DNA of 64,000 nucleotides from a virus, in the IMG/VR virus record IMGVR_UViG_3300047160_036265. One strand, 5' to 3'. Position 1 is the first letter of the stretch. Each line of letters begins with the position of its first letter. A program made the position numbers and the translations under genes. The notes below the pieces were generated by a model. That model worked only from the letters and a program-made list of their open reading frames with translations, searched no databases and had not been told where the DNA came from. Shown in pieces: positions 21,117 to 52,008 of this stretch.

Positions 21117-21566
21117 TCAATAGAGTTTCAGCGGGTGGATTCCCTGTGGGCCGGTGATGCGGTCAATCGCTTCAGCCTGGGTCGGCCCGATGCCCAGGGC
21201 GGTATAAGTTGGAATGCCCTTCATACCCTCGCCAGTGGCCGTCAGGCCGGCGTCTTGGATTAAGAAGACTTCAAGGCCAGCCTGCTTGCACAGCCGCTCG
21301 ACCTCCAGAAGCTCCTCCTCGTCCTTGGCCTGAAGAACCACCTTGGTGGTCATGCCGCTCTCCATCCATACCCGTTGTTCAGGGTTGATGCGGAGGGCGT
21401 CCCAGATGGTGCCCTTAGTCTGTGAGGAACCGCTGGCAGCCCAGAGAACCCGGTGGATCAGGAACGCCGCTGCTGCGTGGCTCCCCTGGGCTATCTCCTT
21501 GCCCCGGCGCATCCCCAAGTCCCTGCGGATCACCAGCACTTGCTTCACTTCGTCGTGCGTCGGCAT
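21117..21566 (-). CDS. pth2: peptidyl-tRNA hydrolase, PTH2 (archaeal/eukaryotic) family
   Basis: KQVLVIRRDLGMRRGKEIAQGSHAAAAF and KVVLQAKDEEELLEV...LIQDAGLTATGEG...ALGIGP align with the Pth2 consensus. Confidence 0.7.
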   Translation of the reverse strand: MPTHDEVKQVLVIRRDLGMRRGKEIAQGSHAAAAFLIHRVLWAASGSSQTKGTIWDALRINPEQRVWMESGMTTKVVLQAKDEEELLEVERLCKQAGLEVFLIQDAGLTATGEGMKGIPTYTALGIGPTQAEAIDRITGPQGIHPLKLY

Positions 21567-21813
21567 AGCTCATCCCCGTGTGGCCCCGTTTGGCGTGAAG
21601 GTCCGCCTTAGTTTCTTCGCGTACCCAGGCAACAAATTCACAAAGAATCTGCCAGCGGGCCTGGGCGTCCTCATGTTTAGTGTACTGCGTCAACAGCCAG
21701 TGCGACAGCTTGACATCCAAATGTTCCTGAAATTCCTCAAGGAATTCGGCCATATGCGCGAATGATCGCATTATATCCTCGGTAACGGTCTGGGGCTTTT
21801 TCTCGTTGCTCAT
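21415..21813 (-). CDS. hypothetical protein (low confidence; extent uncertain, overlaps pth2 start by ~150 nt)
   Basis: ORF MSNEKKPQTV...; the C-terminal part is low-complexity. Confidence 0.25.
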   Translation of the reverse strand: MSNEKKPQTVTEDIMRSFAHMAEFLEEFQEHLDVKLSHWLLTQYTKHEDAQARWQILCEFVAWVREETKADLHAKRGHTGMSYADARRSEASAGDPQGLGDAPGQGDSPGEPRSSGVPDPPGSLGCQRFLTD

Positions 21814-22003
21814 GGTCGGTAAGGTCGTAAAATATAGGTGGTTCCAGAAGCTTGGCTGGCAACGCCATTTCCTCAAAGAGCTTCCGGTTGAAATATTCGA
21901 GTTCCAGCGAGAACTCGTTGCTGGGCGGTGTCGTGGTCATGGGCAGGGGCAGAAAGTATTCTGCAAAGTGGTAGTTTTCAACCCACTCGTCGTAGGATCG
22001 CAT
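21737..22003 (-). CDS. hypothetical small protein
   Basis: RBS GAGGAGG precedes the MRSYDEWVENYHF start. Trimmed from a longer ORF. Confidence 0.4.
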   Translation of the reverse strand: MRSYDEWVENYHFAEYFLPLPMTTTPPSNEFSLELEYFNRKLFEEMALPAKLLEPPIFYDLTDHEQREKAPDRYRGYNAIIRAYGRIP

Positions 22004-22127
22004 ATCTCGGCCTCCTCTCGCCCTTCTTCCAGGCACTTTCGTGCTTCGGTGACATCCCCACACTTGACGCCGTACAACCAGGCCAACTGTTCCTCCTGAT
22101 ATTGCGTCACCCACTCGACGTAGCTCC

Positions 22128-22694
22128 TCAATATTCCTCCTCGACGGTGGCCCGGAACCACGAGAACTTACTGAAGGTAACGTGCATTTCGGTGCCATCG
22201 CTGAAGAGAATATGATGAATGAACCGGCCCTGGTCATCAATATCGAACTCGTCGTAGAGCCACAGAAAGGCCCAATCCTCCCCGTCCTTGGGGAAACCGG
22301 GGCCGTGGTGCCGTTCACAATGCGGCTCGGCTTCGAGCAGATAAGTGATCGACACCACCATCGACTTCTGCGCATCCTCCTCAGACGGCTCCTTGGGGCC
22401 AAAGTCCAGACGGGTGATGATTTTGAATTCCTCTCCGGCCCGAAAGACCCCGGCAGTGCGGCACCAGGGGTCGGGGGTAGCGTCATGCAGGCAGGTCAGG
22501 TCGAGGAACTTCTGCACCCCCGCCGGCAGACTGCTTTCGTTCTTTTGCAGCCACTTTTCGTATTCCTCGCAGCCCGCTTCCCAAGCCGCCGCCACCTTTT
22601 CCTGGTCCTCGGCCTCGTCGTTCATGCGGTTTACGAGATCGGCGCTCATGTAGTGCATACGATGTCTCCTTATATTTATCTCCGCATTGGTCAC
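22128..22694 (-). CDS. hypothetical protein
   Basis: 188-aa ORF. Confidence 0.45.
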   Translation of the reverse strand: MTNAEINIRRHRMHYMSADLVNRMNDEAEDQEKVAAAWEAGCEEYEKWLQKNESSLPAGVQKFLDLTCLHDATPDPWCRTAGVFRAGEEFKIITRLDFGPKEPSEEDAQKSMVVSITYLLEAEPHCERHHGPGFPKDGEDWAFLWLYDEFDIDDQGRFIHHILFSDGTEMHVTFSKFSWFRATVEEEY

Positions 22695-22857
22695 ACTTAT
22701 AAATCAGCGTGACCACATGATCCCAACTCTCCTTGACGAATTCGGCGTGAACAAAGCCGCCGCAGACGCATTTCTTGGGGTAGCTTAACCAGCATTCCCC
22801 GCACCGCCGATCACCGATTTGGTGTTCGGCCTTCCCTACCAGAATTGTAGTAGCCAT
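22483..22857 (-). CDS. hypothetical Zn-ribbon protein (3' extent uncertain)
   Basis: CGEC...CVCG...CDQCG motifs. The long low-complexity tail overlaps the next gene. Confidence 0.35.
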   Translation of the reverse strand: MATTILVGKAEHQIGDRRCGECWLSYPKKCVCGGFVHAEFVKESWDHVVTLIYKCDQCGDKYKETSYALHERRSRKPHERRGRGPGKGGGGLGSGLRGIRKVAAKERKQSAGGGAEVPRPDLPA

Positions 22858-22877
22858 ATTTCTTCCATCCTTTATTC

Positions 22878-23036
22878 CCCTCAAGGGTTGCGTTTTGAAT
22901 TGTTAGCGATGCACCACCAAAGGATACATCCAACGCCAAAGCCGGCCATCATCGTCGGCATCGCCCCCAACACAGTGACCGAACCGAGAAAGTAACCCAG
23001 ACACCCAAAACCCAGCACAAGCAGTAGACCGCTCAT
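22878..23036 (-). CDS. small hydrophobic membrane protein (~52 aa)
   Basis: MSGLLLVLGFGCLGYFLG... An ATGA overlap couples it to the stop of the 23033 gene. It is below the ORF-track length cutoff. Confidence 0.35.
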
Positions 23037-23743
23037 CGGTCAAACTCCTGTTTGTATTTGAAAAACTCCCTGACGCTTTCATCGTATACTTGCTGGGCCT
23101 TCTTCGTGAAGAAATCATCCAGCTTTTGCGTCGTGTCACTCTTGTGGTCCGACTGCATGAGCGCCTGGACCCGGCGGTTGTACTCCGTATAATCGACCCG
23201 GTATTCGTGGTCGTTTATAAAAGTCACCACAGGCCCTTCCTCATCGAGCGGCGGCAGCACGCCCGGCAGACAGTCCGGGTACGCATCTTCCAAGATCGTT
23301 ACGGTCTTGGGCACCATTGCGAAGAGCCGCCCACAGCATTTGGCGAAGCAGTGGCGGTCATCGGTCGCGTTCATGCCTGGTGGTCCAAGCTGCCACTTCA
23401 AAGGCCGGCGGCAGTACATGCAATGGCCTCGTTCCAGGGCATCACTGTATTCAACCTCCGCTCCAGGCCCAAGAATCAGGGGCAGCGGGTCGGGCGGCGT
23501 CGAGTCCGGTTCTTTGGCCTGGTCTTCCTCCACACGCTTCTTGATGGTCTGAAATTGAAAATCCTCTGCTTCATCCCGTTGCGGCAGGCGAAAATCGGTA
23601 TATGGGTCTACATCGCTGCGCATAATCTCATCCAGTTTCTTATTGACCGCAATATCGTTCTTCAGGCGGTCGGCGTAAAATAAGTAATCGTCGGGCAACT
23701 TGGGCTTCTTCTGGCGTTCCTCGTCACTAATATATTTAGCCAT
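23033..23743 (-). CDS. hypothetical protein
   Basis: 236-aa ORF. Confidence 0.5.
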   Translation of the reverse strand: MAKYISDEERQKKPKLPDDYLFYADRLKNDIAVNKKLDEIMRSDVDPYTDFRLPQRDEAEDFQFQTIKKRVEEDQAKEPDSTPPDPLPLILGPGAEVEYSDALERGHCMYCRRPLKWQLGPPGMNATDDRHCFAKCCGRLFAMVPKTVTILEDAYPDCLPGVLPPLDEEGPVVTFINDHEYRVDYTEYNRRVQALMQSDHKSDTTQKLDDFFTKKAQQVYDESVREFFKYKQEFDR

Positions 23744-23751
23744 GATGCCTC

Positions 23752-24720
23752 CTACACTTCAAGCTCCTTATCGCTGAACGCCGACAGGACATGAACCCGT
23801 CCTTGGCCGGGGTGGACGCCACCGATCAGGCGGGCGGTCGGCAGATGCTCCAGCACCGCCGGCACATTTTCCTGGTTGACGCTCAGAACCAAGCCGATCC
23901 CACAGTTGAAGGTCCGGTACATTTCCTCATCGGGGATGCCCTTGGCGTGGATGTCCCGGAAAATCTGCTGGGGCTGAAGCTGGTGTTGCCGCCCGATGTA
24001 AATGTCCGTATTCTTCAAAAACGGCTTGAACTTGGTGAACGCGCCGCCCGTTATGTGCATTATCCCGTTGACCTTCCCGGCAATCGGGAACACGGCGTCC
24101 CAATATATAGCCGTGGGCATGATAAAGTCATCCGGCCATTCGCCCTTGGCCAAAAACGGGTCCAGGCTGTTGATTTGCCGCAGCAGGGTAAAGCCGTTGG
24201 CGTGCAACCCCGTGCTGGGCAGGCCGATGAGGGCATCGCCTTCGAGGAACTGGTTGACGGCGTAGACCATGACGAACCCGGACATGGTGATGCTAACATC
24301 GGGGCAGTCATTCATGTTATTTATGCTTGTCTCCCCACCCGTAAAGACAATGCTCCGGTCCTTGCACTGCTTGACCAACGCCTCGACAATCTGGATGATG
24401 TCCTCCTCATCATCCCAGGGCAGGGTAATGTGGCTCTGGAGCTTGAAGGGCTGCGCCCGGTAGGCCAGGAGATCGTTCAGGTTCATGGCCAGGGCGTCCA
24501 GGGCAGCGGCTTCCCAAGAGCGGGCCTCGTAGTGGTAGTACGCCTTGGTGCCGATACCGTCCGTGTGGTCAACCTGGCCGCTGGTCTGGCCGAACGCCGT
24601 TTTCAAAAACAAAACAGGATGGTCCCCGTAGTCAGCTACTTCCAGATAGGGACTGGTCCAGGTCGTCTTGATGAGTTCCAGCACCCGGCCCGTATACGGT
24701 TTGCTCGTATTATATGTCAT
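23752..24720 (-). CDS. purM: phosphoribosylformylglycinamidine cyclo-ligase (AIR synthetase, PurM)
   Basis: VDHTDGIGTKA, TGGETS, LPSTGLHANGFTL, ITGGAFT and FNCGIGLVL are all conserved PurM blocks. Start trimmed to MTYNTSKPY. Confidence 0.8.
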   Translation of the reverse strand: MTYNTSKPYTGRVLELIKTTWTSPYLEVADYGDHPVLFLKTAFGQTSGQVDHTDGIGTKAYYHYEARSWEAAALDALAMNLNDLLAYRAQPFKLQSHITLPWDDEEDIIQIVEALVKQCKDRSIVFTGGETSINNMNDCPDVSITMSGFVMVYAVNQFLEGDALIGLPSTGLHANGFTLLRQINSLDPFLAKGEWPDDFIMPTAIYWDAVFPIAGKVNGIMHITGGAFTKFKPFLKNTDIYIGRQHQLQPQQIFRDIHAKGIPDEEMYRTFNCGIGLVLSVNQENVPAVLEHLPTARLIGGVHPGQGRVHVLSAFSDKELEV

Positions 24721-24769
24721 CGTGGTTCCTATATAAGTCGTGAGAAACTTTGTGGAATTCCTCGACCTG

Positions 24770-25183
24770 ATGGAAAGGCAGAAGCGCACCGCCGCCAAAT
24801 CGGAGCTTTACCCACTCAGCTACGGCGGCATTGGCAATTACCCGCCCGCCTACCTGATTACCAACTCTGCCGACGCCATCTTATATTTTGATGAGGACGA
24901 GCGCCTGTTCAAGACCAATGACGCCAAGCCTTTTCAAATCACCAAGATCAACGGCACCATCATCCCGCCCAAGGGGCACGGTATGCCGGGCGAGGAAATA
25001 CCGCTCCACCCGCACGGAATGCCCGGCGTGGAAATCCCGCCCAAGGAAACGACCATGCCAGGCCGTATTGTCCCGTTTTCTTCCTGGGTGGAGTTGGTCA
25101 CGAAGCCAAAGTTGTTGGACCCGTCAAAAGAGCCTTCACAAGTGCTTCGTCCGTGGCCGTCAAGACGCGACCAGAAGCCATGA
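24770..25183 (+). CDS. hypothetical protein with degenerate 9-aa repeats (HGMPGEEIP / HGMPGVEIP / TMPGRIVP)
   Basis: ORF convergent/overlapping with the 25098 ORF. Weak. Confidence 0.3.
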   Translation: MERQKRTAAKSELYPLSYGGIGNYPPAYLITNSADAILYFDEDERLFKTNDAKPFQITKINGTIIPPKGHGMPGEEIPLHPHGMPGVEIPPKETTMPGRIVPFSSWVELVTKPKLLDPSKEPSQVLRPWPSRRDQKP

Positions 25184-25710: not shown

Positions 25711-25760
25711 AGTTACTCCAAAAGTGTGACACAAGCATTATATACCAGAAAGGAGGAACT

Positions 25761-26090
25761 ATGGCTTTATTCAACATTACGTTGGGCAACCCCGGAGTAG
25801 GCAATTTTCAAGGTGGCTGGAACGGCCACGGTGGCGGCATGTACCAGAACGAGTTCTACAACCAGGGAGGCGTTATGCTCCAGGGTGTCTGGATCAACGT
25901 CGCCAATGGGGGCCAGTGCGAAATAACCCAACAGGGAAACCAAGGCATGTTCATTAACGAACGTGGAAGCCAAGCTTATGGCATGATCTACCCTGGCCGA
26001 GTTGATATTCCCGCCTGGAACACGTCTGGCATGATCGCAGGGAACCGAATTGTCTGGCCGGATGGGAATTATTGGGAAAGGATTCAGTAG
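25761..26090 (+). CDS. Gly/Asn/Gln-rich small protein
   Basis: A strong RBS AAGGAGG precedes MALFNITLGNPGVGNFQGGWNGHGGG. Confidence 0.5.
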   Translation: MALFNITLGNPGVGNFQGGWNGHGGGMYQNEFYNQGGVMLQGVWINVANGGQCEITQQGNQGMFINERGSQAYGMIYPGRVDIPAWNTSGMIAGNRIVWPDGNYWERIQ

Positions 26091-34513: not shown

Positions 34514-35067
34514 AGGGGTTTAGGTAAGGGCGGCGACTGGCCCAGACGCTCCACACACATCTTCTGCATCCGCTCCACGGGGATGAGGTAGGCGAAGACA
34601 CAGGCCAGATATTGCTCCACGAAACTGCCGATCCCTGGGTTGGTGCTTTCCCGATTGCCGGCGATGTTGAGTACCTTGACCTTGTTGTTGACGATCCAGG
34701 TCACGGCCCCCTCGATGGTCGGTGGCTTTTTCACGTCCACGTCGAAATATGGCTTATCGAACCACTTCAGGGCTTTCAGAGTGCAGCGTTCGCCCGCCGT
34801 GTTAAAGTTGGCGGCAAAGCGCATCGTGCCGTCCGAATCCCGGACGTTAGCTTCCGTGCGAGGAGGGTACTTATCGCTCTCCATCTCCTTCAGGCCGAAC
34901 TGTGCAGCCAGGGCAGGGTTCGGGCCTTCCTCGGTCACACAGCCGAAGGGCACCCAACCTCCTGTGGCAATGCCCATCGTCCGTGCGGCCCGGAGGCCCG
35001 CCTGGTCAGCCCCCGTCTGGCCCCCCGACACCACCTTCTCCAGAGTCCACTCCCGGTCTTGCAGCAT
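34486..35067 (-). CDS. SLOG-superfamily (YpsA / MoCo-carrier-like) protein
   Basis: SGGQTGADQAGLRAARTMGIATGGWVPFG resembles the ISGGQTGVDRAALDAA...GGWCP signature. Confidence 0.45.
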   Translation of the reverse strand: MLQDREWTLEKVVSGGQTGADQAGLRAARTMGIATGGWVPFGCVTEEGPNPALAAQFGLKEMESDKYPPRTEANVRDSDGTMRFAANFNTAGERCTLKALKWFDKPYFDVDVKKPPTIEGAVTWIVNNKVKVLNIAGNRESTNPGIGSFVEQYLACVFAYLIPVERMQKMCVERLGQSPPLPKPLCLMRRAMQ

Positions 35068-40587: not shown

Positions 40588-41631
40588 TCACCATACCTCA
40601 ATATCACCATCGTTTTCTATGCCAGTCACCTTCGCACCGTTGTAAAGCACGTCGCCCGGCTTCAATTCGCCCGCACGCCGGGAAGCCCCGCCCGGCACAA
40701 CATAGGGGGTTTCTTCACTGCACCGAACTGGCTCAACCTCCCCCTCCACCGACATTAGGAGCGCCGGCGTGGTTCGCGTTGCCACGCCCCTTCGGGCTTG
40801 CAAGGAGCGGGTAACAAACTTGAAAAACCCGATATTCGCGTTGGCGTCCGGCAGTGATAAAACGCAAGTATACGGGACACCACAGTGGGGATCAATACGC
40901 TCATCAAAGGCCCGCTTGTAGAAAAAGGGCGGGTAGCTGTTCCAGTAATGGATATTGCAAACGTCCGTCAGGAAGCTGGGAACCTTCATGCGATGGTCCA
41001 GGTGCGATTCAAAATTCATGACAACCTCAATAGGCAGGTTGATGGCTGCCAGCCCCATTGCCATGCCCACCATTTCCCGGCAATAATACCCCATCTCCCC
41101 GCCGTGCAGCTTGCCGCTCGCCACCGGATAATTCTCGGCCAGGAACTTGCAATAACCGACCATAACCTCGAAGATGGAATCCGGGGCGGTGTTGAACTGA
41201 TAAAAAGCCCCAACCGGATACCAATTTGCAAACGGGAAGCGGTCGTAACCGTGTCCTTGTTCCAAGATGTCCCGGTGCATCCCCTCGACATACTGGCAGG
41301 CAATGGGTGCAGCACTCTGAGGCGGAACCTGCCTCATCACCACGTCGGCGTCCATGAGAGTTACGGGTTGGCGCACTAACCCCTTCTTGACGGCCACCAG
41401 CAGCGAATAGGGCTTGGTCATGGGGTAGCAATACTGGTCCCAGGAGGCACCAATGTGAGGCACCTGAAAAGCTCGCCGCCAGGACGGGGGAGGGTTGGGC
41501 GGGCCAATCAGCGGATCGGACCACGCCACCACCAAGTTGTTCTCGATGCCCAATAAGGTCATGCTCTCCACCAGCAAATCTAATTGCCAGCGCATGAAAG
41601 GGCGGTTTTCAATGTGAACTAGATAATCCAT
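40588..41631 (-). CDS. hypothetical protein (~347 aa)
   Basis: Trimmed to MDYLVHIENRPF. The N-terminal extension of the 423-aa ORF is Ser/Arg-rich junk that overlaps the upstream gene. Confidence 0.5.
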   Translation of the reverse strand: MDYLVHIENRPFMRWQLDLLVESMTLLGIENNLVVAWSDPLIGPPNPPPSWRRAFQVPHIGASWDQYCYPMTKPYSLLVAVKKGLVRQPVTLMDADVVMRQVPPQSAAPIACQYVEGMHRDILEQGHGYDRFPFANWYPVGAFYQFNTAPDSIFEVMVGYCKFLAENYPVASGKLHGGEMGYYCREMVGMAMGLAAINLPIEVVMNFESHLDHRMKVPSFLTDVCNIHYWNSYPPFFYKRAFDERIDPHCGVPYTCVLSLPDANANIGFFKFVTRSLQARRGVATRTTPALLMSVEGEVEPVRCSEETPYVVPGGASRRAGELKPGDVLYNGAKVTGIENDGDIEVW

Positions 41632-42235
41632 GTTTCGGTGCGGCCTTACGGAACTCCGTGGCCAGGCTATTATAGACCGGCTGATACTTGTCCTTGAAAT
41701 ACTCCCAATTGTATTGTTGGGCATCACGGATTTCAAACCAGAAGCGATTGGCGGCGGCGTAGTTGCTGAGCCGCCCCGTGCTGGCGATCTGGGTTCCGAA
41801 AATGAGAATCCGCAGGCTGTGGAACAGGCTCTTCCAGCCGATGTAATAGTCCTTTTCAACTTCCAGCTTCTTTTTGGCCTTCACGAAACTGTGACTGGCC
41901 TTTTGCGACAACTCGCTGCGCAAGGTGCCAAGGTCGAGGGCAAAGGTGAATTCCTTCGCCACCCGGCCATCGGGCAGATAGTACGCCTCCAAGGCGTGTA
42001 TCTTGTGCCGATTAAGCTGGTCTTGGAAGTCCCGGCGGTTGAAGATGTGTATGTTGACGTTATCGCGCTGATATTCCTCGCCGGTGTCAGCCCGGCGGTT
42101 CGCTGGGACAATCGCCAGATAATCCTCGTCGGAATCCTTACCGGCGGTGCCATAGACCCTGGACCCGTAGGGAACAAACAGCACGTCCTGTTCCCTGAGT
42201 CCGTAGGTAGCCCGGAAGTAGGTCAAGGGGTCCAC
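41609..42235 (-). CDS. Pol-beta superfamily nucleotidyltransferase (second copy type)
   Basis: LFVPYGSRVYGTAGKDSDEDYLAIV. Confidence 0.55.
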   Translation of the reverse strand: MDPLTYFRATYGLREQDVLFVPYGSRVYGTAGKDSDEDYLAIVPANRRADTGEEYQRDNVNIHIFNRRDFQDQLNRHKIHALEAYYLPDGRVAKEFTFALDLGTLRSELSQKASHSFVKAKKKLEVEKDYYIGWKSLFHSLRILIFGTQIASTGRLSNYAAANRFWFEIRDAQQYNWEYFKDKYQPVYNSLATEFRKAAPKHGLSSSH

Positions 42236-42580: not shown

Positions 42581-42600
42581 ATGCCTCCTTGCTAAGACAG

Positions 42601-42673
42601 AGCGGGTGATGGGACTCGAACCCACGACATTCACGTTGGCAACGTGACGCTCTACCAACTGAGCTACACCCGC
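42601..42673 (-). tRNA. tRNA-Gly (anticodon GCC)
   Basis: Manual fold: GCGGGTG acceptor, GCTC-AGTTGGTA-GAGC D-arm, anticodon loop TTGCCAA, T-arm GTGGG-TTCGAGT-CCCAT. Confidence 0.85.
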
Positions 42674-42690: not shown

Positions 42691-42906
42691 TCAACCCAAA
42701 TTATAACCCACCCGCCGGAGCGTTCGCACCCCCTCCACCAATTCGACCCGGTGTGTGACGCCAGGAGGCGTCGGCCCATCGCCCTCATATACCTGGCCGT
42801 TGGCAACCAGGGCTTCAATAAACTTCAGGGCAGCCTTTATAGCCCTCTCATCGGTGCCTACCGTTTGCACGTCGATGTCACCCAGAGCCGTGTCCTTCAG
42901 GATCAT
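42691..42906 (-). CDS. hypothetical protein
   Basis: 71-aa ORF. Confidence 0.4.
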   Translation of the reverse strand: MILKDTALGDIDVQTVGTDERAIKAALKFIEALVANGQVYEGDGPTPPGVTHRVELVEGVRTLRRVGYNLG

Positions 42907-43453
42907 TGGTTCCCTCCTTTTTAATTTGCTCCATGAGCCATTGGATGGTGCGCTTGGCCCCAGCGAAGCTCATGACCGCCAGGCTGGGGTAATACTTCTC
43001 GATCTCCGTGCGCCAGCGGTTATCGGCCTTGCGAGCCTCGCAGTTAGACATAACGTAGGCGACAACCGCCCGGTGTCCGCCCTCGGCCATCTGCTTCTCC
43101 AGGGCCTCCTTCTTGAATCCAAAACAGGCCAGTTCGGCAATCCAGCCGTTATCGACCGGGTAGACGAACTCATCCAGGTCGAACGTCACCGGGAGGCCGT
43201 TGTCGGTGTTGACAGCGTAAGTGCCAGTGTCCGACTGGAGCTTGATATATTGCGTGGGCAACCCAGGGCGTTCCACGTTATGGAACTTGGCCCCAGGCTT
43301 CAGCGTTTCAAATTTCACCCACCCCTCCGGCGGGTGATAGTTTCCACTTGGCTTCACCATGTTTGCTATCCCCAATATGTATGGGGTGATGAGTTCAACA
43401 ACGTCGCGCATCTCCTGGTAATGAGCCGCTTCCCAGGAGTGGAAAGTCCTCAT
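42878..43453 (-). CDS. hypothetical protein
   Basis: Trimmed to MRTFHSW. Confidence 0.45.
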   Translation of the reverse strand: MRTFHSWEAAHYQEMRDVVELITPYILGIANMVKPSGNYHPPEGWVKFETLKPGAKFHNVERPGLPTQYIKLQSDTGTYAVNTDNGLPVTFDLDEFVYPVDNGWIAELACFGFKKEALEKQMAEGGHRAVVAYVMSNCEARKADNRWRTEIEKYYPSLAVMSFAGAKRTIQWLMEQIKKEGTNDPEGHGSG

Positions 43454-43722
43454 GTCTGCTGCCCTTGCTGCTGCTCGGCCCACCATTCCGCTAGGGTCTT
43501 GCCGGACTTCTCCAGCATCTCCTTGAACTCCCGGCCCCGACGCTTACGGCACTCACACACGCAGTCAGGGCAGTCACAGAAGGCCACGGCCCCGCATTCG
43601 GTGCAATAATCCTGGTTGAGCCAAGCGATAATCTTGAGTCGATCAGCGTCCTCCAGGCGGGAGATCGCCTCCTGCAACTGGCTGACGGTCAACCGGGTCG
43701 CCACCGTGTTGTATTCCTGCAT
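43450..43722 (-). CDS. hypothetical Cys-rich protein
   Basis: CTECGAVAFCDCPDCVCEC motifs. Start trimmed to MQEYNTVA. Confidence 0.4.
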   Translation of the reverse strand: MQEYNTVATRLTVSQLQEAISRLEDADRLKIIAWLNQDYCTECGAVAFCDCPDCVCECRKRRGREFKEMLEKSGKTLAEWWAEQQQGQQT

Positions 43723-43729
43723 CAAGCCC

Positions 43730-44047
43730 TCAGTTATTATTCGGATCGGGCGGCTTGCTGTCGTACACGGTGCCCGAATCCTCGACCTGGCACACCGCCG
43801 GGGCATTGCCCTTCCAGGTGCCGTCCCCACGAATGAGGATCGCCTTGGGGTTGCCCTTGGCCGCTCGCCAGCAGGCATCGCAGGCCACAACCCAACCAGC
43901 CTCCCCCATCGTCCGATCCGGGCGCATGAAGCGGACCTTTCCATCCTGCATCTTGAAAAAATGATGCTTGTCGGCGTGCAGATGCCCGCAGTGAACAATC
44001 CGCTCGCCATGCTTGGGCTGGATTTCGGTGAATTTCTTGTCGGCCAC
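43730..44047 (-). CDS. hypothetical protein (GTG start)
   Basis: RBS AGGAGG lies 5 nt before the GTG. The product is MADKKFTEIQ... Confidence 0.5.
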   Translation of the reverse strand: MADKKFTEIQPKHGERIVHCGHLHADKHHFFKMQDGKVRFMRPDRTMGEAGWVVACDACWRAAKGNPKAILIRGDGTWKGNAPAVCQVEDSGTVYDSKPPDPNNN

Positions 44048-44056
44048 AGGAGCCTC

Positions 44057-44173
44057 CTATCTGATGATGCCTGCACAAAGCATAATCAGCATCATGACAC
44101 CAAAAACTGCCAGCGTCCACAATAAAAGCCGGCCAAAAAATTCAGGGATTCCGGGAGGGCCTGCGCCATTCAT
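44057..44173 (-). CDS. small membrane peptide (~38 aa)
   Basis: MNGAGPPGIPEFFGRLLLWTLAVFGVMMLIML. It starts 3 nt after the tRNA-Thr 3' end and is below the ORF-track cutoff. Confidence 0.3.
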   Translation of the reverse strand: MNGAGPPGIPEFFGRLLLWTLAVFGVMMLIMLCAGIIR

Positions 44174-44175
44174 AG

Positions 44176-44246
44176 AGCCGGTAGAGAGAATCGAACTCTC
44201 GTCTCCTGTTTACAAGACAGGCATAATACCACTATACGATACCGGC
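44176..44246 (-). tRNA. tRNA-Thr (anticodon TGT)
   Basis: Manual fold: GCCGGTA/TACCGGC acceptor, anticodon stem CCTGT/ACAGG with loop CTTGTAA, T-arm GAGAG-TTCGATT-CTCTC. Confidence 0.8.
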
Positions 44247-44507
44247 TTAGTTGTTATTATGTATCCGCAGCATCGGCAAACTTTGCTGCAAAGAGTCCAG
44301 CAGCCCCTCCATTTCTTTTTTCAAAATCTCCTTCTGCTCAGAATCCAGGCAGGTCTTGTACTGCCGCCCCAGGTCACACAAGCGCACACAACCTTCATAA
44401 TGGGCGCGATAGAAGTCGGCATGAACCTGCCCGGCACGCCCCTCGATCTCCTCCAGAGCCAGCTTCATCACCGCCAGCGACTCTTCCATCTTGGTTAAAT
44501 CGACCAT
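44247..44507 (-). CDS. hypothetical protein
   Basis: 86-aa ORF abutting the tRNA 5' end. Confidence 0.45.
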   Translation of the reverse strand: MVDLTKMEESLAVMKLALEEIEGRAGQVHADFYRAHYEGCVRLCDLGRQYKTCLDSEQKEILKKEMEGLLDSLQQSLPMLRIHNNN

Positions 44508-45028
44508 TACTCCTCCACCGCACTCTGCCAGTAGCGGAACGTGTCGTCCGTTACCAGGGCCTCCCGGTCATGAAGGTTCTTCAGGAAATCGAAGAACGCC
44601 GCACATTCGTCCCTCATGCCTAGAAGCCGAAGGGACGTGAGGCAACGGGTAATCCGCAGCCAGTTGTGATTGGGCCGATTCCACACTTCGGGCCGGCGGG
44701 CGGCGAAGTTATCGGCCTTCTTCACCCTCCACAGGCCCTTCCCAAACTCGTCCTCATGGTACTCTAGGCCCAGGAAGTTCAGGAAGCGATGGAATGCCTT
44801 CAGCAGCCGATATTTCATCACCTTGTCAGCGTTGAACGCCGCAATATCCTCATCCGTCAGGATAGGAGCATCGGCGTTGAAGCGGCTGTGTTCCCGGAGG
44901 GGGAATAGCCACTGGATGTAGTCATGTTCGATCTCCATATCCTCGTCATCCATGCCGAGAACGGCGTCCAGCGTCCTGCCTTCCGTGTCTCTGCCCTCGC
45001 CAGAGTAAAAATCAGTCAGTTGCGACAT
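44507..45028 (-). CDS. OGFr-family (opioid growth factor receptor conserved region-like) protein
   Basis: DYIQWLFPLREHSRFN ... HNWLRITR resemble the OGFr_N conserved region. Confidence 0.4.
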   Translation of the reverse strand: MSQLTDFYSGEGRDTEGRTLDAVLGMDDEDMEIEHDYIQWLFPLREHSRFNADAPILTDEDIAAFNADKVMKYRLLKAFHRFLNFLGLEYHEDEFGKGLWRVKKADNFAARRPEVWNRPNHNWLRITRCLTSLRLLGMRDECAAFFDFLKNLHDREALVTDDTFRYWQSAVEE

Positions 45029-46386: not shown

Positions 46387-47856
46387 CTACTCCTTCAGTC
46401 GAAGTTCCCTGCGAAGCTGCTCTGGGATGCCGGCAGGGGCTTGCATTACCGCCGTCCGCCCGTGGGCATTCATCGGAAAGGCGATCACTTCCTTCAGGGA
46501 CGTTTCATTGCAAAGTAACATGGCCAGGCGGTCCAGACCAAGGGCAATTCCGCCGTGGGGAGGCGTACCCAGATCGAAAGCGTCCAGCATGTGGCCGACA
46601 CTCTCCTCCGTCTCGCCCTGATTGTACCCCATATTGCGGAAGGTAGCTTCGAGGATGTCCCGCCGGTGGGCGCGAATGCTGCCGCTCCCCACTTCGTAAC
46701 CGTTGCAAACCAGATCGTACTGATACGCCTGAATCTGGTCGAGGTTCTTACCCTCAAGGTGCCACTCCAGGTGTTCCGCAATCGGCATCGAGAAGGGGTT
46801 GTGCATGAACGTATATTCGCCCTTGGTATCGAGTTTTTCCTCGGCGGTCGTCGCCTTTTTGTACATGGGAAAACGAACGACCCAGCAAAAGGCCAGGACG
46901 TTGTTCTGTATCTGGTCGGGAGTGCGGATGTCGGGCTTGTCCGTTTTGTATTTCTCCATCGCCTCCTGGTAGGTGAGGATGGGGAAGGTGGACATGGCGT
47001 TGTCGAGAAGGTCGTAGCGGCGCTCGTCCTTGTACTCGTCGTTGCACTTGCGGCTTAGTTTGTAGCAGCAATAACGAATCACATCACTGACATGGTGGAA
47101 TATACGCCATTCCTCCGGGAAGGCGATTTCCATGTCAAGTTGTGTGAATTCAAAACCACGGTCGAGACGCAGGCTCTCGTCCCGGATGCAGCGGGCGATC
47201 TGGTAATAACCCTCGAAACCCGCCGTCATGAGCAACTGTTTGTACTGCTGGGGACTCTGCGGCAGGGCGTAGAACTTGCCCGGCTGAAGACGCGACGGCA
47301 CCACAAAATCCCGTGCCCCCTCCTTGGTGGACTTGGTAAGCATCGGGGTTTCAATATAGGTGAAGTGCGTCGTGGCGCACTGGCCCAGGATCGTGTGAAT
47401 ATACTGGATGATTTTCGAGCGCACCAGCATGTTACGGTGCAAGCGTTTGCGGCGCAGGTCCAAGTAGCGATACTGAAGGCGCTTCTCCTCATTGATCTCA
47501 TAGCCTGGGCCGTCAATGGGGATGGGAAGCTCCTTGCACTTGTTGAGAACCGTGCATGTATCCACGACCACTTCGACGCTACCCGTCAACATCTCCGGGT
47601 TGACCATGTGTTCGGGGCGCTTGACGATCTTCCCCGTAATTTCCACCACGTCTTCGGCATTCAACCCCTTCATCAAACCACGACCTACGCACTGAACAAT
47701 GCCGGTGAAGTCGCGCAGGTCAATAAACACCAGTTTGCCGTGGCTGCGCACCGTGTCCACCCAGCCCTGGAGACGCCACAGGGTCGCATCAGGCCCGCCG
47801 GTGCTGGCAAGGCGCTGGGTGGATTCGGCGGTGGTTAGTTGTCCTGGCCTTCGCAT
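46387..47856 (-). CDS. aspS: aspartyl-tRNA synthetase, bacterial type but lacking the GAD insertion domain (~490 aa)
   Basis: IETPMLTKSTKEGARDFVVPSRLQPGKFYALPQSPQQYKQLLM, QIARCIRDE, EFTQLD, GSGSIRAHR and PPHGGIALGLDRLAMLL blocks. Start trimmed to MRRPGQLTT, which aligns with E. coli MRTEYCGQL. Confidence 0.8.
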   Translation of the reverse strand: MRRPGQLTTAESTQRLASTGGPDATLWRLQGWVDTVRSHGKLVFIDLRDFTGIVQCVGRGLMKGLNAEDVVEITGKIVKRPEHMVNPEMLTGSVEVVVDTCTVLNKCKELPIPIDGPGYEINEEKRLQYRYLDLRRKRLHRNMLVRSKIIQYIHTILGQCATTHFTYIETPMLTKSTKEGARDFVVPSRLQPGKFYALPQSPQQYKQLLMTAGFEGYYQIARCIRDESLRLDRGFEFTQLDMEIAFPEEWRIFHHVSDVIRYCCYKLSRKCNDEYKDERRYDLLDNAMSTFPILTYQEAMEKYKTDKPDIRTPDQIQNNVLAFCWVVRFPMYKKATTAEEKLDTKGEYTFMHNPFSMPIAEHLEWHLEGKNLDQIQAYQYDLVCNGYEVGSGSIRAHRRDILEATFRNMGYNQGETEESVGHMLDAFDLGTPPHGGIALGLDRLAMLLCNETSLKEVIAFPMNAHGRTAVMQAPAGIPEQLRRELRLKE

Positions 47857-48860
47857 AATGGCTCCAAATAAGCGGCGGCAAAGTCTACCTTCTTCTCGAA
47901 GGGCAGTTGCCGCATATATTCCCCATTCAACCAAAGGAGTTTCGCCGGGTCAAAACTGGCCGGGGAATCGTTCACGCCGTCCAATGAAAAACATTCTACC
48001 AGTTTCGCCAGTGGAATGATTTCCGAAGTTCCGTCCAGCGCCCAACCCAGGCGAGCCAAGTAGTTGACCATCGCCTCCGGCAGATAACCCATCGCCTGAT
48101 AATAGCCCAGGACCGCCGGGTTCAGATCAGTGCGTTCGGTAAAACCAATCGTTGTCAACTTCTCACACACGTCCGGGGTCATGAACTGATCCAGGTCGCG
48201 CTTGCTGAGCTTCTTCTTCGATCCCGGCGCACAAATAAAAGACAGGTGGCCAAACTTCGGTTCGGCCCAGCCCAAACTACGAAACAGGGCCAATTGAATG
48301 GGCGTGTTGCTTAGATGTTCCTCGCCCCGGAGGATGTGGGTCACGCCCAGGTCGTGATCGTCCACCACGGAGGCGAAGTTGTAAAGGAAGGTGCCGTCCG
48401 ACCGCCGGATCACCGGGTCTTTGATGAGCTTGTCATCCCAGGTGAGCTTCTTGCGGATCAGGTCGAAACAGCCGATGCCCACGCCATCATCCCAATGGGG
48501 GATGCTGAAGCGGACAGCGCCCTCCTCCTCGTAGGCCCACCCGGAGGCAAGCAGGCTGGCGCAGACCTCCCGGTAACGGTCCAGGCGCTCGGACTGATAG
48601 AACGGGCCGGCGTCATGCGACAGGCCCAGCCAGGCGAGGCCATCAAGAATAGGCTGCACGGCCTCTTCGATGTTGCGCTCGGTGTCGGTGTCGTCAATAC
48701 GCAGGATGAACCGGCCCTGGTAACGGCGGGCGTAGAGCCAGTTGAAAAGTGCGGTTCGGACGCCGCCGATGTGCAAGTACCCCGTGGGACTAGGTGCGAA
48801 CCGAGTGACTGGTTTGAGCATGAAGTTGAGCCTGTATTTGCTTGTGTACCTCCGGCCCAA
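47835..48860 (-). CDS. glutamyl-tRNA synthetase catalytic core lacking the C-terminal anticodon-binding domain (GluQ-RS-like architecture); probable start at 48821
   Basis: VTRFAPSPTGYLHIGGVRTALFNW is the HIGH motif and KLSKR is the KMSKS motif. Colinear with E. coli GluRS residues ~1-345, then stops. Confidence 0.75.
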   Translation of the reverse strand: MGRRYTSKYRLNFMLKPVTRFAPSPTGYLHIGGVRTALFNWLYARRYQGRFILRIDDTDTERNIEEAVQPILDGLAWLGLSHDAGPFYQSERLDRYREVCASLLASGWAYEEEGAVRFSIPHWDDGVGIGCFDLIRKKLTWDDKLIKDPVIRRSDGTFLYNFASVVDDHDLGVTHILRGEEHLSNTPIQLALFRSLGWAEPKFGHLSFICAPGSKKKLSKRDLDQFMTPDVCEKLTTIGFTERTDLNPAVLGYYQAMGYLPEAMVNYLARLGWALDGTSEIIPLAKLVECFSLDGVNDSPASFDPAKLLWLNGEYMRQLPFEKKVDFAAAYLEPLCEGQDN

Positions 48861-49214: not shown

Positions 49215-49426
49215 TGCATGATCTCCACGATGCCCTGGGCAACCAGGGTCGGCATGTCCTGAGCCTTCAAGCCGTGCAGGGCGATGTAATGCCGCTGGAC
49301 CTTATATTTCACCCCCGCAACCTCCACCGGGATGTATTCCCCCAACTGCTCAACAAGGCGCGACACCCTCCGCTCTATCGCTGGGTCGGAATAATGCAAG
49401 GGCTGACCGCAGGCGCAGTGTTGCAT
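49211..49426 (-). CDS. hypothetical protein
   Basis: ATGA-coupled. Confidence 0.4.
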   Translation of the reverse strand: MQHCACGQPLHYSDPAIERRVSRLVEQLGEYIPVEVAGVKYKVQRHYIALHGLKAQDMPTLVAQGIVEIMQ

Positions 49427-49429
49427 ATG

Positions 49430-49684
49430 TCACCCTGTCATGCCGTCGTGGATGGACACCACGACGGACTTACTCCTGACGGCGAACTTGAAATAGTGAA
49501 ATTCCGATTGGGTGGGGTCAATACCCGACTCATCCTTTAACGCCTTGAGCGCAGCCCGCTCATATTTGCGGACCAAGGCCAGGGCCTTGCGCAATTCTGC
49601 CGCCTCGGTGGCCGTGGCCGGGAAAGTAACCTCCACGATCCCGGAGGCGGCGCTGTAGTGTTCCTGCACGTCGATGGCTTTCAT
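49430..49684 (-). CDS. hypothetical protein
   Basis: Trimmed to MKAIDVQEHY. Confidence 0.4.
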   Translation of the reverse strand: MKAIDVQEHYSAASGIVEVTFPATATEAAELRKALALVRKYERAALKALKDESGIDPTQSEFHYFKFAVRSKSVVVSIHDGMTG

Positions 49685-50007
49685 TCGGCTGGCTCGATTT
49701 CGCAACTCATGGACCCCTGACACCGGGCAATCATCTTGTCTGGCCCAAAGGCGTGAACCTGCTCCTGTTTCAACTCGGCGTGTTCCTTCGTCGTGGTCAG
49801 CAGGATGGTGCGGCCCGTCTCGTGAACCTCCTTGGCGTGCTGCATCCCCTTCTCCGGCGGGAAGCCGAAAATCTTCTGCAACATCCCGATGACGTACTCG
49901 AACGAGTGGTCGTCGTCGTTCAGGAGGATGACGTTATAAGGCGGCTGTTGCTTGACTTTCTTTTCCTCTTCCGTCCGTGGTTTTGGCCTCTCAATTGTTT
50001 CCGGCAT
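49681..50007 (-). CDS. clpS: ATP-dependent Clp protease adaptor ClpS
   Basis: YNVILLNDDDHSFEYVIGMLQKIF...AKEVHETGRTILLTTTKEHAELK matches the ClpS core. Confidence 0.7.
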   Translation of the reverse strand: MPETIERPKPRTEEEKKVKQQPPYNVILLNDDDHSFEYVIGMLQKIFGFPPEKGMQHAKEVHETGRTILLTTTKEHAELKQEQVHAFGPDKMIARCQGSMSCEIEPAE

Positions 50008-50099
50008 TGTTTCCTCTTTCCGTGTTTGTTGTATTTGCGGGCACCTTACCTTACCTCCGTAGGCCCCGACTGTAAACCCCCTCTTGGGCGGTTATGGAA

Positions 50100-50276
50100 G
50101 TCTACCACCTAAAGCCTTCCCCCACAAGGTCTTTCGGCTCCTGCCCCAGAAGCTCGAAAACCCGGTCCAGGTCTTCCAGCCGCACAGGCGGCTCGCCCAT
50201 CTGGGCGAAGAGCAAGTCGATTGCCCAGGTTTCCGGCACGGGCAGGGCCATCGTGACCCAAATGACTGTCTCATAC
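50100..50276 (-). CDS. hypothetical small protein (low confidence)
   Basis: MYETVIWVTMALPVPETW... It overlaps the upstream stop by 8 nt and is below the ORF-track cutoff. Confidence 0.25.
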
Positions 50277-50495
50277 ATCCGTGTGTTCTTTCACCCACTG
50301 GTCATAAGTCTTCATGCCCGTGTGTTTGGGACGGGAGTGTTTGTATTTGAGATAATAGGGCAAGCACGTCGGGCCAGTCAACGGCTGGACCTTGATGAGC
50401 TTGTCCGCTATGAGTTGGGGGTAAATGCGGCGAACGAGGGGGATGGTGATGCGCTTGAATTGCCCATTGCCCAAATAATCATCGTAGTGTCGCAT
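50271..50495 (-). CDS. hypothetical protein
   Basis: 74-aa ORF. Confidence 0.4.
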   Translation of the reverse strand: MRHYDDYLGNGQFKRITIPLVRRIYPQLIADKLIKVQPLTGPTCLPYYLKYKHSRPKHTGMKTYDQWVKEHTDV

Positions 50496-50542
50496 AATTC
50501 ATCCTTGAATAATAAGGGCGGGCCGAAACCCGCCCTTAACTT

Positions 50543-50764
50543 CTATTCGTCTTCATCTTCGCCCTCGCCCACCTGCATGTAAATCGGGTCGCAGGCATTG
50601 CGAGGTTCCTCGATCTTTGTCACCGACCCTCCCTTTGCCACTATCTCATGGACGATGGCACGCCGGGCCTCTAAATCGCTGCCGGCGTTTTTGACGACGA
50701 TGTTGGCCGTAATCGGCCATCCCTGCGCGTCCGTCAGTGAGACGGAAAATAGCCACTCGATCAT
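50543..50764 (-). CDS. hypothetical protein with acidic tail
   Basis: 73-aa ORF. Confidence 0.4.
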   Translation of the reverse strand: MIEWLFSVSLTDAQGWPITANIVVKNAGSDLEARRAIVHEIVAKGGSVTKIEEPRNACDPIYMQVGEGEDEDE

Positions 50765-50841
50765 GGCGGTGCCCTCTCAAAAATGGTGGTTAGCACATGG
50801 TAAACCTCCGGGGGCGATGGTTCCGGTTTCAAAATAAAAGG

Positions 50842-50912
50842 AGCGGGCTACGAGATTTGAACTCGTGCTTTCAACTTGGAAGGATGACGTGCTGCCACTA
50901 CACCAAGCCCGC
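50842..50912 (-). tRNA. tRNA-Gly (anticodon TCC)
   Basis: Manual fold: GCGGGCT/AGCCCGC acceptor, anticodon loop CTTCCAA, T-arm ACGAG-TTCAAAT-CTCGT. There is one U-U mismatch in the anticodon stem and a 3-bp D-stem. Confidence 0.7.
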
Positions 50913-50946
50913 ACGAATATATTGTATGCTTGCCGTTATTGAAATA

Positions 50947-51207
50947 TCAACGGCAAGCATCTTGTGCGGCTTTGAGCCAGCCCTCGTCTTTGAGGCCCTG
51001 GCACTGGCTACAGAATTGATAGGGTCGGAAGAGGTAGTTTTCCGGCAGAACCTCGGTGGGCATCCCGCACGCCTCGCAGTAGTAGTACATTGGCGAGCCG
51101 GCGTGGAGACTCTGGTTCTCAACCTTGGTGATATGCTTGGCGTAATCCTTGCGCCGGGCAAACTGCCGAATCGCCTCCTCCTTGGCGTATTCGAGATCAG
51201 TTTTCAT
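50947..51207 (-). CDS. hypothetical Zn-ribbon protein
   Basis: CEACGM...CSQC motifs. Confidence 0.45.
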   Translation of the reverse strand: MKTDLEYAKEEAIRQFARRKDYAKHITKVENQSLHAGSPMYYYCEACGMPTEVLPENYLFRPYQFCSQCQGLKDEGWLKAAQDACR

Positions 51208-51422
51208 TTTTCGATTCCCCGAAGAAACTGGTATTCGGTCAACGGGGTGAGGTTACAAGCCTTCACACAGGTCACAGTTACGGTGCCGCAGAGTATCACG
51301 AAAAGCCCGATTGCTGCAAAAGCCATTCCCTCCGACTTTTGTTTAACGGCGGCTGCCGTGATACACATAAAGCAGATGCCGAAAAACATGCTGAGGATGG
51401 CCAGCGAGAAGAACACGATCAT
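51204..51422 (-). CDS. hypothetical membrane protein
   Basis: ATGA-coupled; two transmembrane segments. Confidence 0.45.
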   Translation of the reverse strand: MIVFFSLAILSMFFGICFMCITAAAVKQKSEGMAFAAIGLFVILCGTVTVTCVKACNLTPLTEYQFLRGIEK

Positions 51423-51447
51423 GTTATAATCCAGCCTCTACAAATTG

Positions 51448-52008
51448 TCAAGAGTTCACAAGCTGAATTTTCTTTTCCATGATGGTGTCGATTTGCTTTA
51501 TGAACGACTCAACCAGAGCCAGAAGTTCCTTATCAAGCCGCCGTTCGGCATCTTCGCTCATAAGGGCCTTGGGGTCAAGGCGCTTTTTGGCCTTTTGTTG
51601 ACCCTTCTTCGCATCGTGTCTTATATTACGAATCGTCACCCGTGCGTCTTCGGCCAGGCCACGGATTTGGGCCACCAGCTTTTCCTTCTGGCCGCTGTCC
51701 ATGCGGGGCTGCGAGACATACACCACGTCCTCCTTGCCGGGCTGATAGACACTGTATCCCTGGCCTTCTAACGCCCGCCGCACGTCCGGCAACGCCTCCG
51801 GGTCATGGGGGCGAATCTGCACGTTGTTATGCAGTTGCGGCAGCACCATCGCCACCCGCCCCAACGGCTCTACGGTGCCCTTGAAACGCACGCGCACCGC
51901 CTCAATGACGGAGATCGTATTGCCGCCGTGCAAGCCGGCAAGGTTGTCCTTGAAGTGCAGCAAGCTCTTGTCCATCTTCTGTCGGGAATTTTGAATTACC
52001 TCTTTCAT
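51448..52008 (-). CDS. frr: ribosome recycling factor
   Basis: MKEVIQNSRQKMDKSLLHFKDNLAGLHGGNTISVIEAVRVRFKGTVEPLGRVAMV...VTIRNIRHDAKK...SEDAERRLDKELLALVESFIKQIDTIMEKK is colinear with E. coli RRF. Confidence 0.8.
   Translation of the reverse strand: MKEVIQNSRQKMDKSLLHFKDNLAGLHGGNTISVIEAVRVRFKGTVEPLGRVAMVLPQLHNNVQIRPHDPEALPDVRRALEGQGYSVYQPGKEDVVYVSQPRMDSGQKEKLVAQIRGLAEDARVTIRNIRHDAKKGQQKAKKRLDPKALMSEDAERRLDKELLALVESFIKQIDTIMEKKIQLVNS

Follow-up and report, generated by a model that had tools for sequence, protein, structure and literature searches.

A release factor gene of a huge phage, predicted to be read through a prfB-like +1 frameshift, and the translation genes around it

What would a virus do with a release factor gene that apparently cannot be read in a single frame, and why does this gene lie among so many others serving translation? 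Both questions arise from a stretch of 64,000 nucleotides (nt) of the virus record IMGVR_UViG_3300047160_036265, which we call the window. By profile scoring with Pfam and NCBIfam we identified in it a ribosome recycling factor (RRF), a peptidyl-tRNA hydrolase (PTH2), the adaptor ClpS, the aminoacyl-tRNA synthetase (aaRS) AspRS, the catalytic cores of GluRS and SerRS, and a frameshifted class I release factor (RF), all of them exceeding the Pfam gathering threshold. A sequence-only reading had already named every one of these genes, placing them within positions 21117-52008, and had judged the breadth of the set unusual. The genes are indeed present and the RF is indeed frameshifted, but it lies at 17866-18661, outside that interval, and the breadth has precedents. 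Huge phages, above 200 kb, were reported to carry tens of tRNAs, up to 15 aaRS, RF1/RF2 and RRF, which the authors took for a means to intercept host translation and keep it going (Al-Shayeb et al. 2020, Nature 578:425; PMC7162821). An accessory translation set as such is already published for these phages, which the window resembles by its tRNAs, aaRS, RF and RRF: seven translation proteins and 12 tRNAs among about 127 open reading frames (ORFs) are far above a typical phage and inside the huge-phage range (PMC7162821). As posed, the set is one more example of the largest phages carrying translation parts of their own. What looks new, judging from sequence comparison, is the RF, an RF1-type factor without domain 1 that appears to be encoded behind a +1 frameshift like that of prfB.

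The RF gene and its signals are disposed as follows:

17866..18661, minus strand: RF1-type class I release factor without domain 1 (RF-1 domain and end of the PCRF domain, Pfam)
18590..18595, minus strand: +1 frameshift site (CTT at 18595-18593, TGA at 18592-18590, G at 18589)
18670..18677, minus strand: Shine-Dalgarno sequence GAAAGGAG, strong, ending 8 nt ahead of the leader ATG (18661)

The leader ORF has 23 codons (18661-18593, MSKKFKRHTYQERVVPNKPLDCL) and terminates in CTT TGA G; the body of the RF follows in the +1 frame, from the GAG at 18591 to the stop at 17866, and starts ENSTELIVELQFGEGGQDSKLF. The predicted frame-corrected product counts 264 amino acids (aa). It is closer to RF1 than to RF2, by the NCBIfam models (173 bits for prfA versus 105 for prfB) as well as by PDB chains (139 bits for RF1 versus 88 for RF2), and it aligns with residues 94-340 of Thermus thermophilus RF1 in an alignment that spans the frame junction. 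The GGQ motif is present, and the tripeptide is PPT, a PxT variant; the SPF of RF2 was not found in the window RF. The four-domain architecture of RF1 nevertheless fails, domain 2 being preceded by the 23 leader codons only and the prfA score (160.7) remaining under the cutoff of 423. PrfH and ArfB are also short GGQ proteins which, like the phage RF, are without RF domain 1; both were ruled out by score (prfH 27 bits for a cutoff of 167, ArfB 19 for 100), and the phage RF differs from them in retaining the codon-reading domains 2 and 4 and the PxT-type motif. An assembly indel at the TTT run was discarded too, the same out-of-frame layout recurring in assemblies made independently of one another and in a genome curated by hand. 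So was an alternative genetic code: the window has a coding density of 89% under code 11, the three stops are all in use, and reading through the leader TGA gives nothing RF-like. As predicted from the sequence, the RF can only be produced via a +1 slip at CTT-TGA after the 23-codon leader.

This layout is not confined to the window. The best 120 RF homologs in the database are all 200-293 aa long, and several are on contigs of 200-670 kb. In 48 of the 53 homologs whose called ORF reaches upstream, F[D/E] is found at the position corresponding to the site, for a background of 2.6%; as TTTGA encodes F[D/E] in the +1 frame, this dipeptide is a footprint of the frameshift. On the DNA, every close homolog that was fetched has the cassette: CTT followed by a stop occupies the same position in the homolog loci L006, L007, L009, L010, L011 and L012, and the curated huge phage LR756511 carries such sites as well:

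L006 (669-kb contig): CTT TGA
L009: CTT TGA
L010: CTT TGA
L011 (407-kb contig): CTT TAG
LR756511: CTT TAA, then CTT TGA
L012: CTT TAG, two sites

A family set was assembled from 80 IMG/VR loci, the homolog loci fetched previously and the window (L006, L007, L009-L012, L014-L067, L108 and window 17866-18661, minus strand), and deduplicated to 47 domain-1-less RF loci. An in-phase CTT+stop is present in 37 of these 47 non-redundant loci, nearly all of them viral contigs, where about 2% per locus is expected by chance, and it lies mostly 11-12 codons ahead of the GxGG motif. The site is single in 29 of the 37 loci and tandem in 8; the proximal stop is TGA in 29, TAG in 7 and TAA in 1. Across the family the leader length ranges from 8 to 27 codons, and the frameshift hexamer is kept while its flanks vary. 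About half of the loci have a Shine-Dalgarno-like GAG, GGG or AGG 3 nt upstream of CTT, and strong Shine-Dalgarno sequences precede most of the homolog leaders checked, our script detecting none at about 11 loci. No link appears between the stop codon of the site and the tripeptide motif, PPT being dominant with TGA, TAG and TAA alike. Among the more distant RFs of phages, some have their full length and the others, domain-1-less, have an in-frame ATG. As to the methods of detection, tblastn found RF matches in 74 records of a collection of 50,697 phage records (some of them evidently mislabelled bacterial contigs, which holds for all the counts from this collection given below); scanning IMG/VR with single proteins gave one locus for the RF and none for RRF, the RF loci being recovered by an alignment query. 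In bacteria, the CTT+stop cassette is absent from the 76 full-length RF1 genes among the best 80 matches in 185,579 species genomes. Of the other four matches, three are cut at the edge of a contig or locus, and the last is an exception: a 26-kb contig of a metagenome-assembled genome, with 43% identity, which carries CTT TAG.

How does this cassette compare with that of prfB? In both, a short leader leads to CUU UGA and the body lies in the +1 frame; the leader of Escherichia coli prfB has about 25 codons. The window RF differs from it by its RF1-type body, with PPT and GGQ instead of an SPF-type one, and by the loss of domain 1, and the phage family differs further by the use of any of the three stops and by its tandem sites. 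A survey published in 2025 and covering 12,753 bacterial genomes states that programmed frameshifting has been demonstrated in prfB, none being known in prfA, and that the prfB stop is never TAG (PMC12421855). The main text of the huge-phage study does not mention frameshifting of RF genes (PMC7162821), and our literature search turned up no description of phage RF frameshifting, which is a lead to novelty rather than a proof of it. On balance we are inclined to believe in a huge-phage-specific family of domain-1-less RF1-type factors whose synthesis depends entirely on programmed +1 frameshifting at CUU-UGA, CUU-UAG or CUU-UAA, twice over in some members. It would be the first case in an RF1-type gene, and would act as a sensor coupling the synthesis of the phage RF to termination in the infected cell: with UAG or UAA, a site could respond to RF1 and to the phage factor, and with UGA it would respond to host RF2.

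Is the window phage DNA at all? If it were a fragment of a bacterial chromosome or megaplasmid, its gene set would be ordinary housekeeping. ORFs identical to its RF and RRF are recorded on a 669,797-bp JGI metagenome contig, larger than the 200 kb from which phages are called huge or jumbo (the RRF protein is additionally present in five ENA assemblies), and a small bacterial genome could also measure some 670 kb. Al-Shayeb et al. moreover noted large elements, plasmid-like, whose translation genes are similar (PMC7162821), and within the 64 kb we found no virion gene beyond a 74-aa fragment resembling the N-terminus of gp23. Several observations oppose a bacterial origin. The window is collinear with a curated phage, LR756511 (595,163 bp). 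The RF relatives are on IMG/VR viral contigs of 50-550 kb, beside tail genes: T4-type tail-tube, baseplate and gp25 genes adjoin the RF on the 407-kb contig L011. Among the best 80 matches in the species genomes, the RF family is absent except for the single 26-kb contig already cited. Finally no housekeeping or ribosomal-protein operon was found in the 64-kb window, its aaRS are truncated, and about 60% of its ORFs have no Pfam match. A bacterial fragment is thus very improbable and already largely refuted. The window is phage DNA, as the sequence-only reading had supposed while noting that flanking housekeeping operons would make the gene set unremarkable.

Its general features are a GC content of about 56%, 127 called ORFs (106 of them minus-strand), a median protein of 109 aa, about ten matched PHROG families, and stop codons distributed as TGA 62, TAA 36 and TAG 29. 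Megablast of 24 kb against the phage collection returned a tRNA-Gly match only, therefore no close relative has been sequenced. When all window proteins were compared with LR756511 by tblastn, 30 of the 127 matched, with 31-67% identity. Window 0.7-21.5 kb corresponds to 199.7-219.6 kb of LR756511 in a collinear block of 20 kb, and genes from the rest of the window map to the tRNA-rich region of that phage, at 220-292 kb. LR756511, the nearest relative to have been sequenced, is, like the other huge phages matched here, an "uncultured phage" accession of the LR series, which we take to be the series of the Al-Shayeb study. ARAGORN finds in it 65 tRNAs plus a tmRNA. One of these tRNAs has a CUA (amber-suppressor) anticodon, of interest because the RF gene of LR756511 is doubly frameshifted (ARAGORN features at 179588-179661 and 341280-341632). 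We consider it likely, jointly with the whole explanation of the gene set proposed below, that a huge phage of about 670 kb, distantly akin to LR756511, has in the window a portion of its tRNA-rich accessory region.

We now turn to the genes accompanying the RF. The sequence-only reading had counted three aaRS-derived genes and overlooked a fourth, coding for a separate GluRS anticodon-binding-domain protein:

46387..47856, minus strand: bacterial-type AspRS, 489 aa, GAD insertion domain cleanly deleted (tRNA-synt_2, 332 bits, and OB anticodon domain)
47835..48860, minus strand: GluRS catalytic core (tRNA-synt_1c, 243 bits; likely start 48821, giving 328 aa)
28970..29689, minus strand: stand-alone GluRS-type anticodon-binding domain plus DUF2934, 239 aa (Anticodon_2, 3.2e-12, profile positions 12-140 of 141; DUF2934, 6.3e-12)
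33731..34513, minus strand: SerRS catalytic core of bacterial type, 252-260 aa (tRNA-synt_2b; phrog_16140)

AspRS scores 536 with the NCBIfam aspartate--tRNA ligase model NF001750, over the cutoff of 443; on PDB 4o2d its residues 27-312 fall on 41-309 and its residues 313-485 on 428-601. The GluRS core, with 338.6 for gltX_bact, is also over the cutoff (289.95). It displays a HIGH-like HIGG and a KMSKS-like KLSKR, and it aligns with residues 9-308 of the 448 of 8jpv, the C-terminal anticodon-binding domain being absent. In the ENA contig L001 a 328-aa gene is called, and the relative L106 has an ortholog of 318 aa; in the phage collection GluRS is matched in 47 records. The protein at 28970-29689, which weakly matches gltX_bact positions 412-464 and PDB 4gri residues 450-507, is from its domain content a candidate partner in trans of the GluRS core.

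GluRS thus appears split into two genes 18 kb apart. The core ORF ends where AspRS begins, overlapping its start by 22 nt in the same orientation, which leaves a GluQRS-like role on tRNA-Asp possible. GluQRS (YadB), which glutamylates the queuosine of tRNA-Asp, is likewise a GluRS catalytic domain without the anticodon-binding domain, and AspRS also acts on tRNA-Asp. As a GluQRS, the core is unsupported by its TIGR03838 score (176.9, below the cutoff of 276.7), and its position beside AspRS keeps the idea alive; it differs from GluQRS by passing the GluRS cutoff and by the anticodon-binding domain of GluRS type encoded 18 kb off.

Matching positions 147-400 of the 418 of serS TIGR00414, the SerRS core reaches 264.5 for a cutoff of 301.65, and it aligns with residues 149-399 of Aquifex aeolicus SerRS with motifs 2 and 3 intact. 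The N-terminal coiled-coil arm, by which SerRS binds the variable arm of tRNA-Ser, is absent from it, no Seryl_tRNA_N match occurs anywhere in the window, and there is no room for an arm since a cpYpsA SLOG gene lies directly upstream. In the phage collection SerRS is found in 110 records, chiefly jumbo phages of Ralstonia and Brevundimonas. Two synthetases are therefore retained as bare catalytic cores, and AspRS is kept minus its GAD domain.

One might see in these truncated and frameshifted genes the decaying, functionless remnants of captured host genes: SerRS and GluRS are deprived of tRNA-binding domains, the RF is out of frame and without domain 1, and AspRS misses an insertion domain. 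We computed the ratio of nonsynonymous to synonymous substitution rates (dN/dS) against the relatives L106 and L009, and the values extend only from 0.05 to 0.21: AspRS 0.05, GluRS core 0.07, RRF 0.09, ClpS 0.09, RF 0.15 and PTH2 0.21, the latter versus L009. Selection therefore maintains the genes in their truncated form, and they are no pseudogenes. Their lengths also recur in relatives (318-328 aa for the GluRS core, about 200-293 aa for the RF among its best 120 homologs), and the hexamer conserved amid variable flanks and the intact catalytic motifs go in the same direction. Decay, contradicted by the selection data, is scarcely credible.

The three other proteins named by the sequence-only reading are these:

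21117..21566, minus strand: PTH2, archaeo-eukaryotic type peptidyl-tRNA hydrolase, 149 aa (Pfam PTH2, PF01981, 88.8 bits for a gathering threshold of 23, 3.6e-25)
49681..50007, minus strand: ClpS, N-degron adaptor for ClpAP (Pfam ClpS, PF02617, 70.5 bits for a gathering threshold of 23, 1e-19)
51448..52008, minus strand: RRF, 186 aa, full length (Pfam RRF, PF01765, 89.6 bits for a gathering threshold of 29.7, 2.6e-25)

PTH2 had been called most unexpected, and this does not hold: PTH2, not Pth1, is typical of jumbo phages, several of which also have a stand-alone ClpS (Iyer et al. 2021, Viruses 13:63; PMC7824862). By tblastn we found PTH2 in 33 phage records, including the annotated Myrna, Atu_ph07 and phiM12, the best matches being the huge phages LR756511 and LR745208. 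The window protein scores 80.1 with TIGR00283, just below the cutoff of 82; it aligns with human Bit1 and archaeal Pth2 and retains the GK..AQ..HA and DAG.T motifs, whose conserved Lys and Asp are catalytic in archaeal Pth2. It differs from the jumbo-phage PTH2s by an insertion of about 22 aa. As for ClpS, it had been listed among the translation factors, and it is a protease adaptor, acting in proteolysis. It aligns with E. coli ClpS, the NDD and His pocket residues being retained, and stays below every NCBIfam equivalog cutoff. In contrast with the ClpS of the jumbo phages surveyed by Iyer et al., it had no tblastn match in the 50,697 phage records at E <= 1e-5. The sensitivity of tblastn is limited for queries as divergent as this ClpS and RRF, so that their rarity in the collection is weak evidence that phages seldom carry them.

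Over its whole length RRF can be aligned with that of T. thermophilus, and it retains the IRNIR motif; its score with the equivalog TIGR00496 is 72.9 for a cutoff of 149.1. Its lineage is very divergent: among the best 150 matches from 1.84 billion representatives searched, one protein is 59% identical and all the others are at most 38% identical. This divergence, together with that of the RF and the truncated aaRS, might indicate that these factors inhibit or hijack host translation, for instance as dominant-negative competitors. Domain 1, missing from the RF, makes contact with the L11 stalk and with RF3; an RRF that is combined with the EF-G of another organism can fail to work or be toxic; and the tight, sometimes doubled frameshift gating suggests an RF product whose excess does harm. 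On the other hand, the GGQ, PxT and aaRS active-site motifs are all intact, which a pure blocker would not need, and the phage mRNAs depend on the same ribosomes. We hold such an inhibitory role for improbable.

The window also has an RNA-repair and RNA-processing flavour, with an NYN RNase domain, two RlaP-type nucleotidyltransferases (13530-14429 and 41609-42235), an AAA_33 kinase and a cpYpsA SLOG protein, the gene spans being 753-1265, 5679-6383, 13530-14429, 34486-35067 and 41609-42235. The translation genes could thus belong to counter-defence and RNA-damage repair: the phage would use PTH2, its spare tRNAs, its aaRS cores and its RF to clear or replace parts hit by host anticodon nucleases or ribosome-stalling toxins, along with these nearby genes. 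In jumbo phages PTH2 was set in a context of RNA repair and ribosome rescue by Iyer et al. (PMC7824862), the linkage of PTH2, HNH, RF and RlaP is kept in L009, and one tRNA of the window has an altered anticodon loop. But neither an RNA ligase, nor PNK, nor an anticodon-nuclease inhibitor was identified in the window, and RRF and AspRS have no obvious role in repair. Counter-defence as the explanation is rather unlikely; it overlaps the explanation that we prefer, the topping up of host translation, and does not exclude it.

The tRNAs bear on this latter explanation. Eleven had been announced and twelve are found, the twelfth being that at 26087-26180; ARAGORN and Rfam agree on this number:

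19838..19909, minus strand: tRNA-Met (CAU)
26087..26180, minus strand: 94-nt tRNA, a 21-nt hairpin being inserted into its anticodon loop (ARAGORN; Rfam tRNA model, 62 bits; fold)
26980..27052, minus strand: tRNA-Val (UAC)
27232..27303, minus strand: tRNA-Ala (UGC)
42600..42673, minus strand: tRNA-Gly (GCC)
44175..44246, minus strand: tRNA-Thr (UGU)
50840..50912, minus strand: tRNA-Gly (UCC)
53209..53280, minus strand: tRNA-Ala (GGC)
54907..54977, minus strand: tRNA-Ala (UGC)
55437..55508, minus strand: tRNA-Ala (CGC)
61988..62060, minus strand: tRNA-Arg (CCU)
63306..63378, minus strand: tRNA-Arg (UCU)

The 94-nt tRNA has a counterpart of 94 nt, with the same kind of hairpin, at 220337-220430 of LR756511, and the insertion pattern GGGUY-NNNN-AACCC is shared by phages of 56% and 42% GC. 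If the insertion were removed, the loop would become CUUUUAA (Lys-UUU) or CUUAUAA (Ile-UAU) in the window tRNA, and a CAU loop in LR756511. A group I intron would have to be much longer than these 21 nt. In intron mode ARAGORN also proposed a tRNA-Ala with a 965-nt intron at 23776-24829, which we regard as spurious: it overlaps a PurM-like ORF and Rfam finds none there.

Altogether, it seems likely that the phage tops up or replaces components of the host translation apparatus. During a long infection cycle, phage parts would supplement or take the place of host components in short supply or under attack. The tRNAs and aaRS would maintain the supply of charged tRNA, chiefly for codons that the phage itself seldom uses; the phage RF would terminate at UAA and UAG, the stops of 51% of the window genes; RRF, acting with EF-G, would split post-termination ribosomes, and PTH2 would recycle the peptidyl-tRNA that has dropped off. 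By analogy with prfB autoregulation, the efficiency of termination would control the output of the RF: slow action of host RF2 at the leader UGA would let tRNA-Leu slip from CUU to UUU, and more phage RF would be made.

Several points weigh against this view. The window site (GAC TGT CTT TGA) is without a clear Shine-Dalgarno-like stimulator 3 nt upstream. As an RF1-type (PPT) factor should not read UGA, a UGA site cannot be a simple self-feedback, so that the commonest type of site would sense host RF2 and not the phage factor, and the 49% of window genes that stop at TGA would not be served by such a factor. Only 3 of the 12 tRNAs (Gly-GCC, Ala-GGC and Ala-CGC) read codons common in the phage. 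A SerRS without its arm is expected to charge tRNA-Ser poorly, as is a GluRS without its anticodon-binding domain for tRNA-Glu; both may need partners or have other substrates. The divergence of RRF makes its compatibility with the host EF-G uncertain. The genes are dispersed over 35 kb among ORFans and form no single operon. Lastly, RF and PTH2 are present in LR756511, but tblastn detects there no homolog of RRF, ClpS, AspRS, the GluRS core or the SerRS core, so that no fixed toolkit is conserved; the mix of the window (divergent RRF, GAD-less AspRS, GluRS core with a separate anticodon-domain gene, SerRS core, ClpS) is what sets it apart from this phage.

Parts of the gene order are nonetheless retained in relatives: PTH2-HNH-RF-RlaP in L009, and RRF, the gp23N-like ORF, ClpS, the 318-aa GluRS core and AspRS in L106. 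Because the genes are scattered among ORFans and five have no LR756511 homolog, the gene set looks like a lineage-specific accretion in a tRNA-rich accessory region rather than one module, such as the toolkit for termination and rescue proposed by the sequence-only reading.

Other genes of the window and its relatives deserve mention. The 74-aa ORF already cited (50271-50495, minus strand) resembles the N-terminus only of the T4 major capsid protein gp23 (Pfam Gp23 positions 2-46; phrog_138). It is kept in relatives, at 2851-3093 of L106 and around 524.6 kb of LR756511 (66% identity), with a dN/dS of 0.13, and this stand-alone mimic of a capsid N-terminus is so far unexplained. At 30129-32810 (minus strand), an 893-aa protein combines the shoulder of MVP, the major vault protein, with Vault_3 domains (PDB MVP match, 1e-15), and has full-length homologs of 38-39% identity in two huge phages, LR756500 and LR756501; MVPs of phages were already reported in a 2023 bioRxiv preprint (10.1101/2023.11.10.566534). 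Auxiliary genes code for a PurM-like AIR synthase, a polysaccharide pyruvyl transferase, an OGFr_N-domain protein, glycosyltransferases, a methyltransferase, a thymidylate kinase and a dTDP-sugar epimerase (23752-24798, 27816-28880 and 44507-45028, all minus strand, and 8807-13235). Long overlapping minus-strand ORFs in differing frames, at 21737-22694, 40588-42235 and 42878-44076, are maybe frameshifts or miscalled starts. In the 327-kb relative L010, a ClpP-type protease (2527-3135) and a CCA-adding enzyme (4512-6047) are a few kb from the frameshifted RF.

The RF cassette is what these data bring to the biology of huge phages. If true, it contradicts the current statement that prfB alone uses +1 frameshift recoding, and it suggests phages that monitor the termination capacity of their host. 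With single and tandem sites and the three stop codons all represented, the family offers a natural series for recoding research, and the cassette, short as it is (about 100 nt), is directly testable by reporter.

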